Below the pieces are notes generated by a model. That model did no database searches and was not told the origin of the DNA. It worked only from the letters and a program-made list of their open reading frames with translations. The position numbers and the translations under genes were made by a program. Positions 39,258 to 43,974 of a stretch of 60,208 bases of DNA are shown here, in pieces. Source of the DNA: an uncultured Anaerolineae bacterium (GTDB taxonomy: Bacteria > Chloroflexota > Anaerolineae > Fen-1058); contig CAZYXV010000012.1 in the NCBI GenBank assembly GCA_964651475.1, positions 64,001 through 124,208 of the forward strand, in the 5' to 3' direction. How positions within the stretch are numbered: position 1 is the first letter of the stretch; every line of letters begins with the position of its first letter.

Positions 39258-41144
39258 TTATTCCACCGTCACGCTTTTGGCCAGGTTGCGCGGCTGGTCC
39301 ACGTCCGCGCCGCGCCGCACGGCCAGGTGATAGGCCAGCATTTGCAGCGGCAGCACGGCCAGCGCCGGCGTGAGCAGCGCCGAGGCGCGCGGGATGTAGA
39401 GCACGTAATCGGCTTTTTGCTGGATGGCCTCGTCGCCCTCGGTCGCCACCGCGATGACTGTGCCGCCGCGCGCCTTGACTTGTTCCACCTGGCTGATCAT
39501 TTTGTCGTATACGTTGTCTTGCACGGCAATCGTCACCACCGGCATCCGCTCGTCAATCAGCGCAATGGGGCCGTGCTTCATTTCTCCGGCGGGATAGCCT
39601 TCGGCGTGGATGTAGCTGATTTCCTTTAATTTCAACGCGCCTTCCAGCGCGATGGGATAATTGATGCCGCGCCCCAGGTACAAAAAATGCTCGCGGTCGT
39701 GAAAGCGATTGGCCAGGTCCTCGTAAATGGTGGGCGGCTGTTTCATATAGGCGCCGCCCGCCACCTGGAAGCGCTGCTGCCCTTGCGCCAGCACCTGCCC
39801 CATCAAATCGGGTAGGCGGCTAAGCTCGTCTGCCCATTCGCGCCTGCCCCCGCCGTTGCGCAACTGCCCCAGGTAACACCCCAGCATGTACTCGGCTACC
39901 AGCGAGGCCGTAAAGGCTTTGGTGGACGCCACGCCGATTTCCGGCCCGGCCTGCATCAAAATCGTCCCATCCGACAGGCGGTGCGCCTGCGAGCCGACGA
40001 CGTTGACAATGCTCCACAACAGCGCGCCCTTGTGTTTGGCTTCTTCCATGGCGGCCAGCGTGTCTACTGTTTCGCCGGATTGGGTGATGGCCAGCACCGC
40101 CGTGCGCGGCGTGATGATCGGATCGCGGTAGCGGAACTCGCTGCCGTATTCCACCTCCACCGGCACGCGCGCCAGCTCTTCGATGATAAATTTGCCCACC
40201 AGGCCGGCATAGTACGACGTGCCGCACGCGACGATAAAAATTTTTTCGATCTGCCGCGCCCGCTCGGCCGCCAGGTGTAAATCGTCCAGGATCATGTGCC
40301 CGCGCGCCAGGTCAACCCGTCCGCGAATCGTATCGGTGACCGAGCGCGCCTGTTCATAGATTTCTTTTTGCATAAAGTGGCGATATTCGCCTTTGGCCGC
40401 CGCGACCGGGTCGTAGGGAATGGTGTGCACGGGCAACTCGATCCGCTCGCCGCTGTCCAGCGAGGTGATCTTGACCCCGTCGCGCAGCACCACCGCCATT
40501 TGCCGGCTCTCCAAAAATATCATCTGCCGTGTGTGGTCGAGGATGGCGGGCATGTCAGACGCGATAAACATCTCGCCCTGGCCGATGCCCACCGTCACGC
40601 CGCCGGCGTTGCCGATGCGCGCGCACACCAGCCGGTCCGGCTCCAGCCGGCTCATCAGCACGATGCCGTGCGCGCCTTTGAGCTGCGCCAGCGCGCGGCG
40701 CGCGGCGTCTTCGAGTGATGCGCCCTCGTTGACGTAACTTTCGACCAGGTGGACGATGACTTCGGTGTCCGTTTCTGACGCGAAGGCGTGCCCCGCCGCC
40801 TTGAGTTGTTCGCGCAGCTCGTGGAAATTTTCCACGATGCCATTGTGGATCACCACCAGGTTGCCCGTGCAATCGGTGTGGGGATGGGCGTTCATTTCGC
40901 TGGGCTGGCCGTGCGTGGCCCAGCGCGTGTGCCCCATGCCAATGCAGCCTTTGAGCGGCTGCTCCAGCAAGGCGCTGCCCAGGTTTGCAAGTTTGCCTGT
41001 GTTGCGGCGCACGCCAATGCCGCCATTGTGCTCGACGACGGCAATGCCGGCGCTATCGTAGCCGCGATATTCCAGGCGATGCAACCCTTCCATGATGATG
41101 GTGGTTGCATCGCGATGACCTACGTAACCTACAATTCCACACAT
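39258..41144 (-). CDS. glmS: Glutamine--fructose-6-phosphate aminotransferase (isomerising)
   Basis: 628 aa. MCGIVGYVG N-terminal nucleophile, two SIS domains, C-terminal ...SVTVE. Confidence 0.95.
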   Translation of the reverse strand: MCGIVGYVGHRDATTIIMEGLHRLEYRGYDSAGIAVVEHNGGIGVRRNTGKLANLGSALLEQPLKGCIGMGHTRWATHGQPSEMNAHPHTDCTGNLVVIHNGIVENFHELREQLKAAGHAFASETDTEVIVHLVESYVNEGASLEDAARRALAQLKGAHGIVLMSRLEPDRLVCARIGNAGGVTVGIGQGEMFIASDMPAILDHTRQMIFLESRQMAVVLRDGVKITSLDSGERIELPVHTIPYDPVAAAKGEYRHFMQKEIYEQARSVTDTIRGRVDLARGHMILDDLHLAAERARQIEKIFIVACGTSYYAGLVGKFIIEELARVPVEVEYGSEFRYRDPIITPRTAVLAITQSGETVDTLAAMEEAKHKGALLWSIVNVVGSQAHRLSDGTILMQAGPEIGVASTKAFTASLVAEYMLGCYLGQLRNGGGRREWADELSRLPDLMGQVLAQGQQRFQVAGGAYMKQPPTIYEDLANRFHDREHFLYLGRGINYPIALEGALKLKEISYIHAEGYPAGEMKHGPIALIDERMPVVTIAVQDNVYDKMISQVEQVKARGGTVIAVATEGDEAIQQKADYVLYIPRASALLTPALAVLPLQMLAYHLAVRRGADVDQPRNLAKSVTVE

Positions 41145-41288
41145 AGTTCCTCCGTATCTTGTCGAGGGGCGGCCGCAAGGGTTCGCCTCTACGTTTTCCC
41201 TTTTTCAACGCGAAAAAGGGCCAGTTGACTTTTGCTCTGCATAGTGGAAAGGGGGGGGATCGGCAAACAAAAAAGGCACGCCAGGCGT

Positions 41289-41567
41289 GCCTGTACAAGT
41301 CACCCCTCTATGCAATTCCACACCGGCGTACCCGCACAAGGGTGCCTGCCAGTGACCACTGCGGGCGTTTTAATCGGCGGGTTACCCGCGCCGTTTTGTC
41401 GCGCCGCTTGATTCGAGGGGAAAAACGCGGGGTGTGGCGCCCCGGGAGGCATCCGCTGATCTGTTCGATTTTCTCCCGGCGAACGGGCCGCTCGCCAGGA
41501 TTAGCCTCGCCTCGCGGCGAGGAACCTCCACCTCGTTATCCTTGCCTGCTTGCAAGGATCCATACGC
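41289..41567 (-). ncRNA. glmS ribozyme (GlcN6P-responsive self-cleaving riboswitch) in the glmS 5' leader
   Basis: - strand RNA: ...AU-AGCGUAUGGAUCCUUGCAAGCAGGCAAGGAUAACGAGGUGGAGGUU[hairpin insert]...AAUCGAACAGAUCAGCGGAUGCCUCCCGG...AGAGGGGUGACUUGUACAGG. This matches the remembered B. subtilis core A^GCG...GACGAGG.GGAGGUUAUCGAA...GGCGGAUGCCUCCCGG...AAGGGGGUGAC. A GC hairpin plus U6 follows. Confidence 0.7.
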
Positions 41568-41605
41568 TATCGTTTCCCGATATATTTAGTTGTTGGATTG
41601 TGCGC

Positions 41606-41633
41606 CATGTTAACGCATCTGGCTCAAAAGTCA
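41606..41633 (-). promoter_or_regulatory. Candidate sigma70-like promoter for the glmS ribozyme-glmS transcript
   Basis: - strand TTGACT, 16-nt spacer, TAACAT. About 30 nt upstream of the predicted ribozyme cleavage site. Confidence 0.4.
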
Positions 41634-41675
41634 AGCGCCCGGCGTTAGGCCGTTAGCCTGCGTGGGAGCGCCCTC

Positions 41676-41701
41676 CCCGGCCTGTCGGCCAGGACAGGCC
41701 G
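41676..41701 (-). terminator. GC-rich hairpin downstream of the lipoprotein gene, upstream of the glmS promoter
   Basis: Perfect 10-bp stem CCGGCCTGTC / GACAGGCCGG with a 6-nt loop. No U-tract. Confidence 0.3.
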
Positions 41702-41799
41702 GGCGCGATAGTCGCGCCTGCCTGCCTGGCGGCTAGACAGGAAAGGCGCTCCTACGAGACTCGTACAGCTTGCCCGGTCGGCGGGCAGGTTTCAGGCGA

Positions 41800-42516
41800 T
41801 TAAGGGATATACCACTTGAACGGGATTTGGATCTCGGTGACAACTTTTACCGTCCCGGGATTGTCCGGCACGGCTGAAAAGATAGTCAGCGTGAGTATGG
41901 ACTCAAAGGTCCCGCCGGTCGGCGCGCCGCCATCCACGTAGACGCAAAAGTCGGCTGTGAATCCCTGGCACTGTTTCTGATCGTCGCATACCCCTTTGGC
42001 GGTTTGGATCTTGATGTTGGGACGGGCGTATTGGGGATAGACTGACCAGTTCCTGTCCCAATAGTACATTCTTCGCTCCGGCTCGCCCACGCCTTCTTCC
42101 CACGGATACGATGCGCTCACAAACTTGTTGACGCAGCTTTCCCCGCCTGGGGGCGCCACCAGGTCTACGCCGGATGGGGCCGGCGGCGCGGTGGGTTGTG
42201 GGGCGGCAGTAGGTGATTTAGTGGGCGCGGGGGTCCTGGTGATGGGGCGCGGCGTGCTCGTCGGCGTTAGCGTGGGCGGCGCGGGCGTCTTGGTGGCCGT
42301 GGGCGGCAGGGGCGTTTGGGTGGCCGTGGGGCGCGGCGTGTCGGTCGAGGTGGGGGTCAGGGTGGGCGTGCTCGTCGGCGTGCTCGTCGGCGATGGCGTA
42401 TCGGTAGGCGGCGGCTCGGTGGGGGTGGCGGTCGGAGCCGGCGGGCTGGCGCAGCCGGCGAGCATAAAGACTGCAATCAGCATGTAGACCCATGAGACAA
42501 ACAAGCGTCGTGTCAT
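41800..42516 (-). CDS. Lipoprotein with a long Pro/Thr-rich linker and a C-terminal domain of unknown function
   Basis: 238 aa. Signal plus lipobox LAGC, about 90 aa of PT-rich linker (TPTSTPTLTPTSTDTP...), and a globular C-domain with 4 Cys. Confidence 0.6.
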   Translation of the reverse strand: MTRRLFVSWVYMLIAVFMLAGCASPPAPTATPTEPPPTDTPSPTSTPTSTPTLTPTSTDTPRPTATQTPLPPTATKTPAPPTLTPTSTPRPITRTPAPTKSPTAAPQPTAPPAPSGVDLVAPPGGESCVNKFVSASYPWEEGVGEPERRMYYWDRNWSVYPQYARPNIKIQTAKGVCDDQKQCQGFTADFCVYVDGGAPTGGTFESILTLTIFSAVPDNPGTVKVVTEIQIPFKWYIP

Positions 42517-42576: not shown

Positions 42577-43974
42577 TCACAGATCGTTTGCCCGCAGCAC
42601 GCGATGGATGACGTCGCCCATGGTGTCCACCGCGGCTACCGGGCGGTGGAGCGCGGCGGCGATATCTTGCGGCGTCACGTCGTCCAGGCTCGCGCCGCTG
42701 GGATGATCGAACATGATGCGCGGCAACACCAGGCGCTCTCCCAGCTCGCGGCCTCGCAGTTGTTCGATGACGTCTTTCGCTGTGAGCAGCCCTGCCACCG
42801 TCACCGTTTCGCCAAAGCGGCGATTCACAATCGGGATCACCTCTATCCTGGCGCCGGTCAATGCGCTCAACTCGTCCGCGGCCTGGCGCAGCGTGGGCGC
42901 GAACAAGGTTCCGGTTACGAGCGAGATGTCGGATGTCTGATGTCTGATTTCGGATTTCGGATGTGGTCGGTGGCCGGCTTTCACTTGCCACTTTTTACTT
43001 TCTACTTTTAACTTTCCATTTTCCACTTTCCACTCGTCCAGAAACTCGCGCGCCATCCCCAGCCCGTTTTCTTGCAACTGCAGGCCGTCATAGTGAGCGC
43101 GGGGGGGAACGCGCCGCCCCAGGGCCAGGTACCACTCGTCGGTGGCGTACACAAAACGCGCGCCCAGTTCTGGCTTGAATTGTTTTTGCCAGGCGTGAAC
43201 GGACTGGAGCACGGCCTTCATTTCATCCGGCGTGTTGATGCGCTGGCCGCGTTTGTGGCAGCGCGTGATGCCGACCGGGACGATGCTGACCGAGCGCACG
43301 GCGGGATAGAGGCTTGCCAGGTCCAGGATGCTGCGCTCCAGAATCGCGCCGTCGTTCAGGCCAGGCGTGACGACCAGTTGCGTGTGCGTTTCGATGCCGC
43401 GCCGGGCCAGCCAGCGCAGTTGCCGCATCACGTCTGGGGCGTTGGGGTTGCCTAATACCTGGCGGCGCGCCTCGAGCGGCGTGGCGTGGACGCTGATGTA
43501 CAACGGCGATAGATGCTGCCGCTCGATGCGTTTCCAATCGCGCTCGCTCAGATTGGTCAGCGTGACGTAATGGCCGAACAAAAAGCTGTAGCGATAATCG
43601 TCGTCTTTGACGTACAGCGAGCGGCGCATGCGGGGCGGCATTTGGAGCACAAAGCAGAACGGGCACACGTTGTTACAGCGGCGAATGTCCGTATCGAACG
43701 TGGGGTGCGCAAATTCCAGCCCGAGCGTTTGACCGCCGCCGCGTTCGCCGCTCACGGTCAACTCGTCCGCGCCGCGCCGGAGGCGGAGTTCGACGTGCTC
43801 GTCGGCGGCGTAAAATTGCACGTCAATGATGTCTTGGACGGGGTGACGATTTACGGCTACCAGTTCATCGCCGGGACGCGCGCCCAGCTTTTCGGCCAGG
43901 CTGCCCGGCTCGACGGCGGTGATGCGCCCGCCCGGTACATGGTGTTTAGAGGTCACATGCTCTTTGTTTGGCAT
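42577..43974 (-). CDS. PDZ-domain / radical-SAM-like (CxxxCxxC) / DUF512-family protein carrying an in-frame low-complexity insertion
   Basis: 465 aa. N-terminal PDZ (ITAVEPGSLAEKLGARPGDELVAVN), CNNVCPFC Cx3Cx2C, DUF512-like C-terminal region. Codons about 315-350 are encoded by tandem heptanucleotide repeats. Confidence 0.7.
   Translation of the reverse strand: MPNKEHVTSKHHVPGGRITAVEPGSLAEKLGARPGDELVAVNRHPVQDIIDVQFYAADEHVELRLRRGADELTVSGERGGGQTLGLEFAHPTFDTDIRRCNNVCPFCFVLQMPPRMRRSLYVKDDDYRYSFLFGHYVTLTNLSERDWKRIERQHLSPLYISVHATPLEARRQVLGNPNAPDVMRQLRWLARRGIETHTQLVVTPGLNDGAILERSILDLASLYPAVRSVSIVPVGITRCHKRGQRINTPDEMKAVLQSVHAWQKQFKPELGARFVYATDEWYLALGRRVPPRAHYDGLQLQENGLGMAREFLDEWKVENGKLKVESKKWQVKAGHRPHPKSEIRHQTSDISLVTGTLFAPTLRQAADELSALTGARIEVIPIVNRRFGETVTVAGLLTAKDVIEQLRGRELGERLVLPRIMFDHPSGASLDDVTPQDIAAALHRPVAAVDTMGDVIHRVLRANDL
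42925..43032. repeat. Two blocks of degenerate heptanucleotide tandem repeats inside the radical-SAM/DUF512 ORF
   Basis: + strand GATGTCG GATGTCT GATGTCT GATTTCG GATTTCG GATGTGG (6 units), a 10-nt spacer, then CTTTCAC TTGCCAC TTTTTAC TTTCTAC TTTTAAC TTTCCAT TTTCCAC TTTCCAC (8 units). Total 108 nt = 36 codons, frame preserved. The - strand units are GGAAAGT-like and CGAAATC-like. Confidence 0.6.

Follow-up and report, generated by a model that had tools for sequence, protein, structure and literature searches.

A probable glmS ribozyme in the glmS leader

The 5' untranslated region (UTR) of glmS in a 60,208-nucleotide (nt) stretch of DNA from an uncultured Anaerolineae bacterium, referred to here as the window, contains an element at positions 41578..41355 that was identified, with a probability of about 85%, as an Anaerolineae variant of the glmS ribozyme, the class of self-cleaving riboswitches that use glucosamine-6-phosphate (GlcN6P) as a cofactor. 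Coordinates are those of the whole window, and all leader elements lie on the minus strand. In the glmS family, the leader is cleaved when GlcN6P rises, and less glmS is expressed; by homology, we infer that GlcN6P-dependent cleavage may down-regulate glmS in the window in the same way. The element lies on the same strand as glmS, in its 5' UTR and 211 nt upstream of the ATG. Judged by family matches of the product, which scored 771.6 bits against TIGR01135 (cut-off, 418) and 789 bits against NF001484, the downstream gene is a true glmS. The positions of all features are collected in Table 1.

The original prediction, made from this DNA without database searches, had proposed a glmS ribozyme with lineage-specific peripheral hairpins at this locus, and the helices concerned were found both in the window and, with covariation, in Anaerolineae relatives. 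These relatives were loci encoding GlmS proteins with 58-77% identity, nearly all from metagenome-assembled genomes of Anaerolineae or other Chloroflexota; the closest metagenome relative of the window lineage was 76% identical. Two covariance models were built from their leaders, one for the 5' domain (MAFFT alignment of 15 leaders) and one for the 3' domain (22 leaders). Each gave a single match in the window, at 41577..41442 with 109.9 bits and at 41456..41340 with 78.7 bits, respectively, and together they recovered the ribozyme in 87 of 160 related loci. A strict regular expression for the core sequence, which matched in no more than 12 of 80 loci, was dropped in favor of the covariance models; it fails because P2 covaries.

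Table 1. Features of the glmS locus in the window (arrow, predicted cut)
Feature	Position	Strand	Sequence	Remarks
Sigma-70-like promoter	41607..41634	-	TTGACT, 16-nt spacer, TAACAT	TTGACT 41634-41629; TAACAT 41612-41607
Purine-rich leader, proposed P0 5' strand	41571..41578	-	GGGAAACG	-11 to -4; complementary to post-P3 linker
Predicted scissile bond	41567..41568	-	AUA↓GCG	A41568/G41567; aligned to RF00234 AaAGCG cleavage-site positions
Substrate strand of core pseudoknot	41563..41566	-	C-G-U-A	Pairs with 41454-41457 (A-G-C-G, 5' to 3')
P1 hairpin	41538..41559	-	AUCCUUGC / GCAAGGAU, loop AAGCAG	41559-41552 with 41545-41538; covariation
Core strand, J1/2 and P2 5' strand	41523..41537	-	A-ACGAGG-U-GGAGG-UU	P2 5' strand 41529-41525; conserved
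HpA	41505..41522	-	CCUCGCC-GCGA-GGCGAGG	7 base pairs (bp); GCGA (GNRA) loop; inserted in P2 loop
HpB	41474..41500	-	UCCUGGCGA / UCGCCGGGA	9 bp; after conserved CUAA linker 41504-41501
Core strand with P2 3' strand	41445..41472	-	AAAAUCGAA-CAGAUC-AGCGGAUG-CCUCC	Holds 3' strand of substrate pseudoknot; P2 3' strand 41449-41445
P3 hairpin	41428..41444	-	CGGGG / CCCCG	Loop nt 41438-41434 form P3.1
Pyrimidine-rich linker J3/4	41408..41427	-	CGUUUUUCCCCUCGAAUCAA	Leader-pairing nt 41427-41418; Shine-Dalgarno (SD)-pairing nt 41426-41419
P4/P4.1 domain	41361..41407	-	Internal loop ACAAAA / AUUAAAA	Outer helix 41407-41400 with 41367-41361; internal loop A-rich
P4.1 and L4	41375..41393	-	CGGCGCGG-GUAA-CCCGCCG	P4.1 41393-41386 with 41381-41375; GUAA tetraloop 41385-41382
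P3.1 pseudoknot 3' strand	41355..41359	-	GUGGU	Ribozyme 3' end; pairs with 41438-41434
Putative terminator module	41264..41310	-	UAGAGGGGUGAC; AGGCACGCC-U-GGCGUGCCU; U6GUUUG tail	Upstream block, then hairpin 41292-41274, then tail
Spacer hairpin	41198..41220	-	CCCUUUUUC-GCGUU-GAAAAAGGG	9 bp; in minimum free energy (MFE) and centroid folds; between terminator and SD
SD region	41146..41153	-	GGAGGAAC	Complementary to linker 41426-41419, 8 bp including 2 G.U
glmS coding sequence	39258..41144	-		628 amino acids; N-terminal MCGIVG

Core domain

The helices of the core domain and its substrate pseudoknot were all found. The G, C, and G that follow the predicted cut were invariant in 15/15 seed sequences of the leader alignment. 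The substrate strand contacts its partner through C41566-G41454, G41565-C41455, U41564.G41456, and A41563/A41457, and the last of the alignment columns involved covaried strictly: column 15 (+5 after the cut) tracked column 146 perfectly, with C or U facing G in 8 sequences and A facing A in 7. P1 was paired in 93% of cells, with changes on both sides in 7 of 9 pairs, and P2 was paired in 96%, in the variants GGAGG/CCUCC, GGCGG/CCGCC, and GACGG/CCGUC. Across all 5'-domain pairs, including the substrate pseudoknot, 90.8% of cells held standard pairs, compared with about 43% when the 3' partners were slid, and 22 of 35 pairs had changes on both sides (MAFFT alignment). The covariation score was 0.54, against 0.08-0.14 for slid controls and 0.20 for shuffles, and 0/500 shuffles scored as high. 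Furthermore, RNAalifold, run on the sequence-only 5'-domain alignment, recovered P1, P2, and both inserted hairpins unguided. A second core pseudoknot presumably joins J1/2 (ACGAGG) to the AUCGA strand; both strands were present and invariant in all relatives, which leaves no covariation. Likewise, AUC.GCGGAUGCC was invariant in the seed of the leader alignment.

The motifs that the original prediction had listed for this domain were all located. The cleavage site, given as AU-AGCG, corresponds to AUA↓GCG at A41568/G41567; the P1 hairpin CCUUGC...GCAAGG lies at 41559-41552 / 41545-41538; the ACGAGG strand belongs to ACGAGG-U-GGAGGUU at 41536-41523; AAUCGAA was found at 41470-41464, in AAAAUCGAA (41472-41464); and the near-invariant pseudoknot strand is GCGGAUGCCUCCCGG at 41456-41442. 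In about a dozen relatives (L041, L043, L037, L050, L064, L079, L077, L048, L076, L074, L061, and L081), GCGGAAGCC replaces the near-invariant core GCGGAUGCC, a U-to-A change at a conserved core position.

Hairpins inserted in the P2 loop

The extra hairpins enter the ribozyme at one point, the P2 loop, between GGAGG-UU and AAAAUCGA. Among the relatives, this loop occurred in three forms: a canonical one of 14-15 nt, one with a single hairpin (33 nt), and one with two hairpins joined by CUAAYC (54-118 nt). The two-hairpin form is that of the window, whose loop is 67 nt long. HpA was 99% paired; 6 of its 7 pairs were changed on both sides, and 26/51 loci had a GNRA loop. HpB was 82% paired, with 7/7 pairs changed on both sides (MAFFT alignment). 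The single inserted GC hairpin of the original prediction is HpA (41522-41505); the second, HpB (41500-41474), had been missed. Inserts of this kind are ordinary for the lineage, being present in most Anaerolineae copies. Long P1 extensions and ribozyme-glmS spacers in several relatives are made up of short, degenerate GAUAGC-, UGAUCA-, and CAGUUAG-type repeats (L002:2600-3000, L063:2360-3000, L081:260-640, and L008:2540-2790), and the L008 spacer also contained a duplication of about 100 nt.

Peripheral domain

The 3' domain was supported in the same way. P3 was 98% paired, and P3.1, a pseudoknot absent from the original listing, was 88% paired with 5/5 pairs changed on both sides (MAFFT 3' alignment). 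P4.1 was 95% paired (MAFFT alignment). The outer P4 helix had both-side changes in 8/8 pairs on the model-based alignment, a count that leans on the model, as MAFFT misaligns outer P4. The window has GUAA as its L4, the relatives have GNRA throughout, and both strands of the P4 internal loop are rich in A. The alignment to the Rfam model RF00234 places P4.1 and L4 at 41393-41375, and therefore the AGGGGUGAC block at 41307-41299, which had earlier been taken for the P4 domain, lies outside the ribozyme.

P3 followed by CGUUUUUCC (window 41444-41419, minus strand) was itself flagged as terminator-like, with a 5-bp G-C stem and U5; this U-rich form of the linker was specific to the window. Two relatives (L045:2868-2940 and L060:2899-3000) kept the core and apparently lacked the P4/P4.1 domain; L045 also retained P3 and the CU-rich linker.

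Score against the Rfam model

Several results weigh against the identification as a functional glmS ribozyme. A scan of the whole window against Rfam at gathering thresholds matched no families. In a permissive scan, RF00234 was the best match, at 41579..41351 on the minus strand with 25.4 bits (E = 8.7e-4), a score under its gathering score of 37 bits, which is an annotation threshold and not a structural feature; the cmsearch with RF00234 that the original prediction had named as its check thus came out formally negative. The window also departs from the lineage consensus at two P1-base positions and has A for G at 41537, immediately 5' of ACGAGG, as well as U at +4; activity could be reduced through such deviations at conserved positions.

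The RF00234 alignment nevertheless covered the full model (positions 1-167), interrupted by 59 extra nt in the P2 loop and 21 extra nt after P3, and the score falls below the gathering threshold because these two large insertions are penalized, not because of core mismatches. Of 18 relatives with the same architecture that were tested, 14 passed the gathering score, at 37.4-74.6 bits, and the scores followed the inserts: 67-75 bits without inserts, about 42 with one inserted hairpin, and 37-51 with two. The window copy is the low-scoring end of a continuum of recognized glmS ribozymes. The helices of the class and its substrate and P3.1 pseudoknots were all found, and only the Rfam score fell short of its threshold; on sequence comparison, the evidence from the relatives overrides that formally negative result. 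Sub-threshold matches to CrfA, asX2, PreQ1-III, and Atu_C7 in the region (E, 0.15-3.5) were attributed to chance. If the identification is correct, then lineage-specific insertions push a real glmS ribozyme below the Rfam threshold, and standard pipelines would under-count the class in Chloroflexota.

The deviations and the low score could also point to a decaying, catalytically dead relic, with glmS controlled mainly by the downstream terminator or other factors, a reading to which the strong terminator in the leader and the loss of the ribozyme from many close relatives, including L001, would lend themselves. We consider it very improbable. In the window, every helix is preserved, as are the substrate and P3.1 pseudoknots; highly conserved columns of the lineage consensus were matched at 31/34 positions in the 5' domain and 21/21 in the 3' domain (52/55 overall); the +4 (U.G) and P1 deviations are compatible with pairing; and the insertions account for the score.

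That the leader region is instead protein coding has a negligible probability. Two mechanical open reading frames (ORFs) overlap it, at 41159..41656 on the plus strand and 41053..41298 on the minus strand, but a Pfam search gave no family matches for the leader ORFs, and the leader is conserved as RNA structure with compensatory changes.

Comparison with described glmS ribozymes

In the family architecture, the P1-P2 core holds a double pseudoknot, and the P3/P4 periphery carries P3.1, IL4, and L4 (PMC11602151). Like canonical members of RF00234 in Bacillus and Thermoanaerobacter, the window element lies in the 5' UTR of glmS and has the A↓GCG site, the substrate pseudoknot, P1, P2, the core strands ACGAGG, GGAGG, AUCGA, and GCGGAUGCC, P3 with P3.1, and P4/P4.1 with an A-rich internal loop and a GNRA L4. 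Unlike them, it has a P2 loop enlarged by about 50 nt that fold into two hairpins, a pyrimidine-rich P3-P4 linker of 20 nt (about 4 nt in the Rfam consensus), a purine-rich leader complementary to this linker (A/U-rich and unpaired in the Rfam consensus), and a terminator hairpin between ribozyme and glmS. Rare variants from Deinococcus-Thermus, reportedly described by McCown, Roth and Breaker in 2011, are said to have additional stems in or near the catalytic core and altered supporting substructures; like the window element, they would be lineage specific, outside Firmicutes, and equipped with extra stems, in a phylum different from that of the window. A literature search for glmS ribozymes with additional stems gave no match, and the inserts or the helix discussed below may have been described before.

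A probable helix between the leader and the P3-P4 linker

In the relatives, the P3-P4 linker was about 20 nt long and pyrimidine-rich, with the consensus (U)AUCUUCCCCUCCUG, and the 10-14 nt 5' of the cut were purine-rich and complementary to it (consensus GGGGAAGAYA↓GCG). Neither the leader nor the SD region had been recognized in the original prediction as complementary to the linker. From these sequences, the linker after P3 probably pairs with the leader directly 5' of the scissile bond, in a helix named P0 that would tie the substrate strand to the peripheral domain. P0 typically started 1-5 nt after P3 and ended 1-5 nt before the scissile bond, and its duplex reached -10 kcal/mol or better in 56/69 loci. 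Matched leader/linker variants included GGAGGAAG/CUUCCUCC, GGGAAAG/CUUUCCC, GAGGAAAG/CUUUCCUC, GAGGGAG/CUCCCUC, GGGGGAAG/CUUCCCCC, GGGAAGG/CCUUCCC, and GGGGUU/AACCCC.

Own-locus duplexes were compared with duplexes of swapped partners in permutation tests. In the genome set, own-locus duplexes averaged -12.45 kcal/mol, compared with -10.80 +/- 0.34 for permuted ones, and 0/5000 permutations were as low; composition-matched shuffled leaders gave -7.4 kcal/mol. The independent metagenome set gave -12.38 versus -10.43 +/- 0.38 kcal/mol, again with 0/5000. When 63 loci were pooled, the own-locus mean was -12.65 versus -10.73 +/- 0.26 kcal/mol (z = -7.3). The same linker showed no such specificity for negative-control regions in the coding sequence (z = -0.4), further upstream (+1.2), or in the J1/2-P2 strand (-0.3). 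This last strand, considered as an alternative partner of the linker, was rejected: it is complementary by composition (-10.7 kcal/mol) and lacks own-locus specificity. A column-wise count gave the register modest support, with 23 cells changed on both sides of the P0 columns versus 11.5 +/- 4.4; the covariation score was 0.320 (control, 0.264), a value equalled by 1/500 shuffles.

On the other side, the P1 5' region, used as a further control, was weakly significant (z = -2.5, 27/3000); column by column, P0 was paired in 78% of cells, only a modest margin over the 59-77% of slid registers; the permutation tests remove phylogenetic non-independence incompletely; and the P0 duplex of the window itself, at -8.8 kcal/mol, was among the weaker ones. 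The column-wise test has low power, since many registers allow a purine strand to pair with a pyrimidine strand.

The complementarity might accordingly be incidental: the linker could be a constitutive anti-SD sequence or a structural spacer, the leader could be purine-rich for unrelated reasons, for example as the initial transcribed sequence, and the ribozyme would work canonically without P0. We find this reading less probable than P0, though not implausible. The high pairing of slid registers would agree with it, as would the complementarity of the linker to the SD region and, by composition, to the J1/2-P2 strand. In addition, the canonical glmS ribozyme begins, and requires, only 1 nt upstream of the cut (PMC1635283, PMC8495972). 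Against it stand the strong own-locus specificity, replicated in two independent locus sets, its absence from the equally purine-rich J1/2-P2 strand, the many matched variants, and the consistent placement next to P3 and the cleavage site across loci. If P0 forms, then it would be a new architectural element, a covarying helix that uses 7-11 upstream nt to clamp the substrate strand to the peripheral domain.

Possible pairing of the linker with the Shine-Dalgarno sequence

The SD region of glmS is a second complementary match for the linker, across loci typically as CCCUCCUG with CAGGAGGG. This pairing showed own-locus specificity (z = -4.5), and its duplexes averaged -13.7 kcal/mol, compared with -11.2 kcal/mol for the 16S tail on the same SD regions. 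The linker segments that pair with the leader and with the SD overlapped by at least 4 nt in 48/69 loci. In the window, linker 41426-41419 (GUUUUUCC) can pair either with leader 41578-41571 (GGGAAACG; -8.8 kcal/mol) or with SD 41153-41146 (GGAGGAAC; -10.0 kcal/mol, a value that includes the flanking UCGA/UCGA), and the two alternatives share 6 nt.

A mechanism can be proposed on these complementarities. In the intact precursor, leader 41578-41571 would mask the linker anti-SD 41426-41419 through P0. A rise in GlcN6P would lead to cleavage at A41568/G41567, the 5' fragment (about 32 nt) would be lost, and the freed linker would then switch to SD 41153-41146, blocking glmS translation. This step, in which the linker occupies the glmS SD after loss of the 5' fragment, is offered tentatively and is on balance unlikely. 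The still more doubtful generalization is that glmS ribozymes of Chloroflexi might couple self-cleavage to translation, instead of or beside RNase J-type decay. Three caveats apply to the switch: the SD duplex of the window is among the weaker ones; SD sequences vary little; and the CAGGAGGG SD context, tried as a ribozyme-specific signature, was rejected because of weak enrichment (21/77 loci versus 9/78 loci without the ribozyme).

To our knowledge, the conversion of glmS ribozyme cleavage into repression has been established only for Bacillus, via RNase J1; a linker alternating between leader and SD, if real, would be an alternative repression route for other phyla. The arrangement resembles, in its working only, translational riboswitches with anti-SD and anti-anti-SD sequences, in that a pyrimidine anti-SD has an upstream purine partner and the two pairings are mutually exclusive. 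Unlike in those riboswitches, the proposed switch would be irreversible, brought about by cleavage and loss of the 5' fragment and not by ligand-induced refolding.

Putative promoter and terminator, and spacer

The separate promoter that had been proposed for the locus, TTGACT-16-TAACAT, was located at 41634-41607, the only sigma-70-like match in the 800 nt scanned (41050-41850), where 0.4 matches were expected from shuffles. From sequence, it is plausible that the ribozyme and glmS have this promoter of their own; transcription is predicted to start near 41600, which would give the 5' fragment of about 32 nt upon cleavage. An AT-rich TAAATATAT box at 41588-41580 was rejected as a promoter nearer the cut, as it has no acceptable -35 hexamer at 16-18 nt.

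The GC hairpin with U6 that had been noted downstream of the ribozyme is present at 41292-41274, with the U tract extending to 41268. With 8 pairs (6 of them G-C), a 3-nt loop, the tail UUUUUUGUUUG, and a predicted energy of -13.0 kcal/mol, it has the features of a Rho-independent terminator on the transcribed strand, and the hairpin with its U tract (41292-41268) probably attenuates read-through. A terminator of this kind between ribozyme and glmS was found in 2 of 49 ribozyme-bearing loci, the window and L041. The hairpin of L041 is nearly the same as that of the window, and the flanks of the two can be aligned, including the AGGGGUGAC block, which, by this alignment, belongs to a terminator module common only to these two loci. 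About nine canonical terminators occur in the 60-kb window. A search for repeats of the terminator gave three matches with 3 mismatches, which is chance level; the 3-nt-loop pattern also missed the actual terminator, which makes this result uninformative.

A terminator between ribozyme and glmS, followed by no promoter (none was found between terminator and glmS in the scan of 41050-41850), complicates simple models of ribozyme control and counts as a further difficulty for them. The ribozyme and terminator might form a separate short transcript (41634-41268), similar to an attenuator or small RNA, with glmS expression set by read-through under the control of some factor and not by mRNA decay that follows cleavage. 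Besides the canonical stem and U tract and the missing second promoter, this reading would draw on the use of such terminators elsewhere in the genome and on the retention of the module and its flanks in L041, whose GlmS is only 67% identical. It is nonetheless improbable: with the terminator restricted to 2/49 ribozyme loci, the mechanism cannot be general; no convincing antiterminator was found in the spacer, where the alternative helix of the MFE fold still stops at the U tract; and shuffled sequences fold as well as the spacer does (z = -0.10).

The ribozyme-ribosome binding site spacer, earlier put at about 110 nt, is actually about 200 nt, counted from the ribozyme end at 41355; the earlier figure corresponds to the stretch between terminator and ribosome binding site. 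The spacer between ribozyme and SD was unconserved among relatives.

Distribution among relatives

Of 80 genome loci, 50 carried the ribozyme directly before glmS, 47 of them with both domains; of 80 metagenome loci, 37 did so, 36 with both. The locus with the closest GlmS (L001, 77% identity) has no ribozyme, and its glmS lies about 90 nt after a radical-SAM gene (L001:2500-3010); in the window, unlike in L001, a Pro/Thr-rich ORF and the ribozyme lie between the radical-SAM gene and glmS. Because the ribozyme is so patchy, it is a poor taxonomic marker, contrary to the value first ascribed to it.

In one relative (L043:1-2870), other genes separate the ribozyme (5' domain 1-164, 3' domain 150-271) from glmS. 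The ribozyme is followed by genes for a DegT/PseC-type sugar aminotransferase (516-1619) and a Gfo/Idh/MocA oxidoreductase related to UDP-GlcNAc 3-dehydrogenase (1620-2654), and then by glmS at 2858; by this gene order, the locus looks like a ribozyme-controlled amino-sugar operon.

Genes upstream of the ribozyme

The ORF upstream of the ribozyme in the window (41800-42516, minus strand) encodes 238 amino acids, with a lipoprotein-like N terminus (…LAGC) and a long Pro/Thr-rich low-complexity region, and had no NCBIfam or Pfam family match. Its repeat region has an extreme GC skew (<=0.44 on the plus strand at 42200-42399). Upstream of it, the gene at 42577-43974 (minus strand) matched the radical-SAM family TIGR03279 with 387.5 bits, under the cut-off of 574.7, and in L001 and L007 a gene of this kind adjoins glmS.

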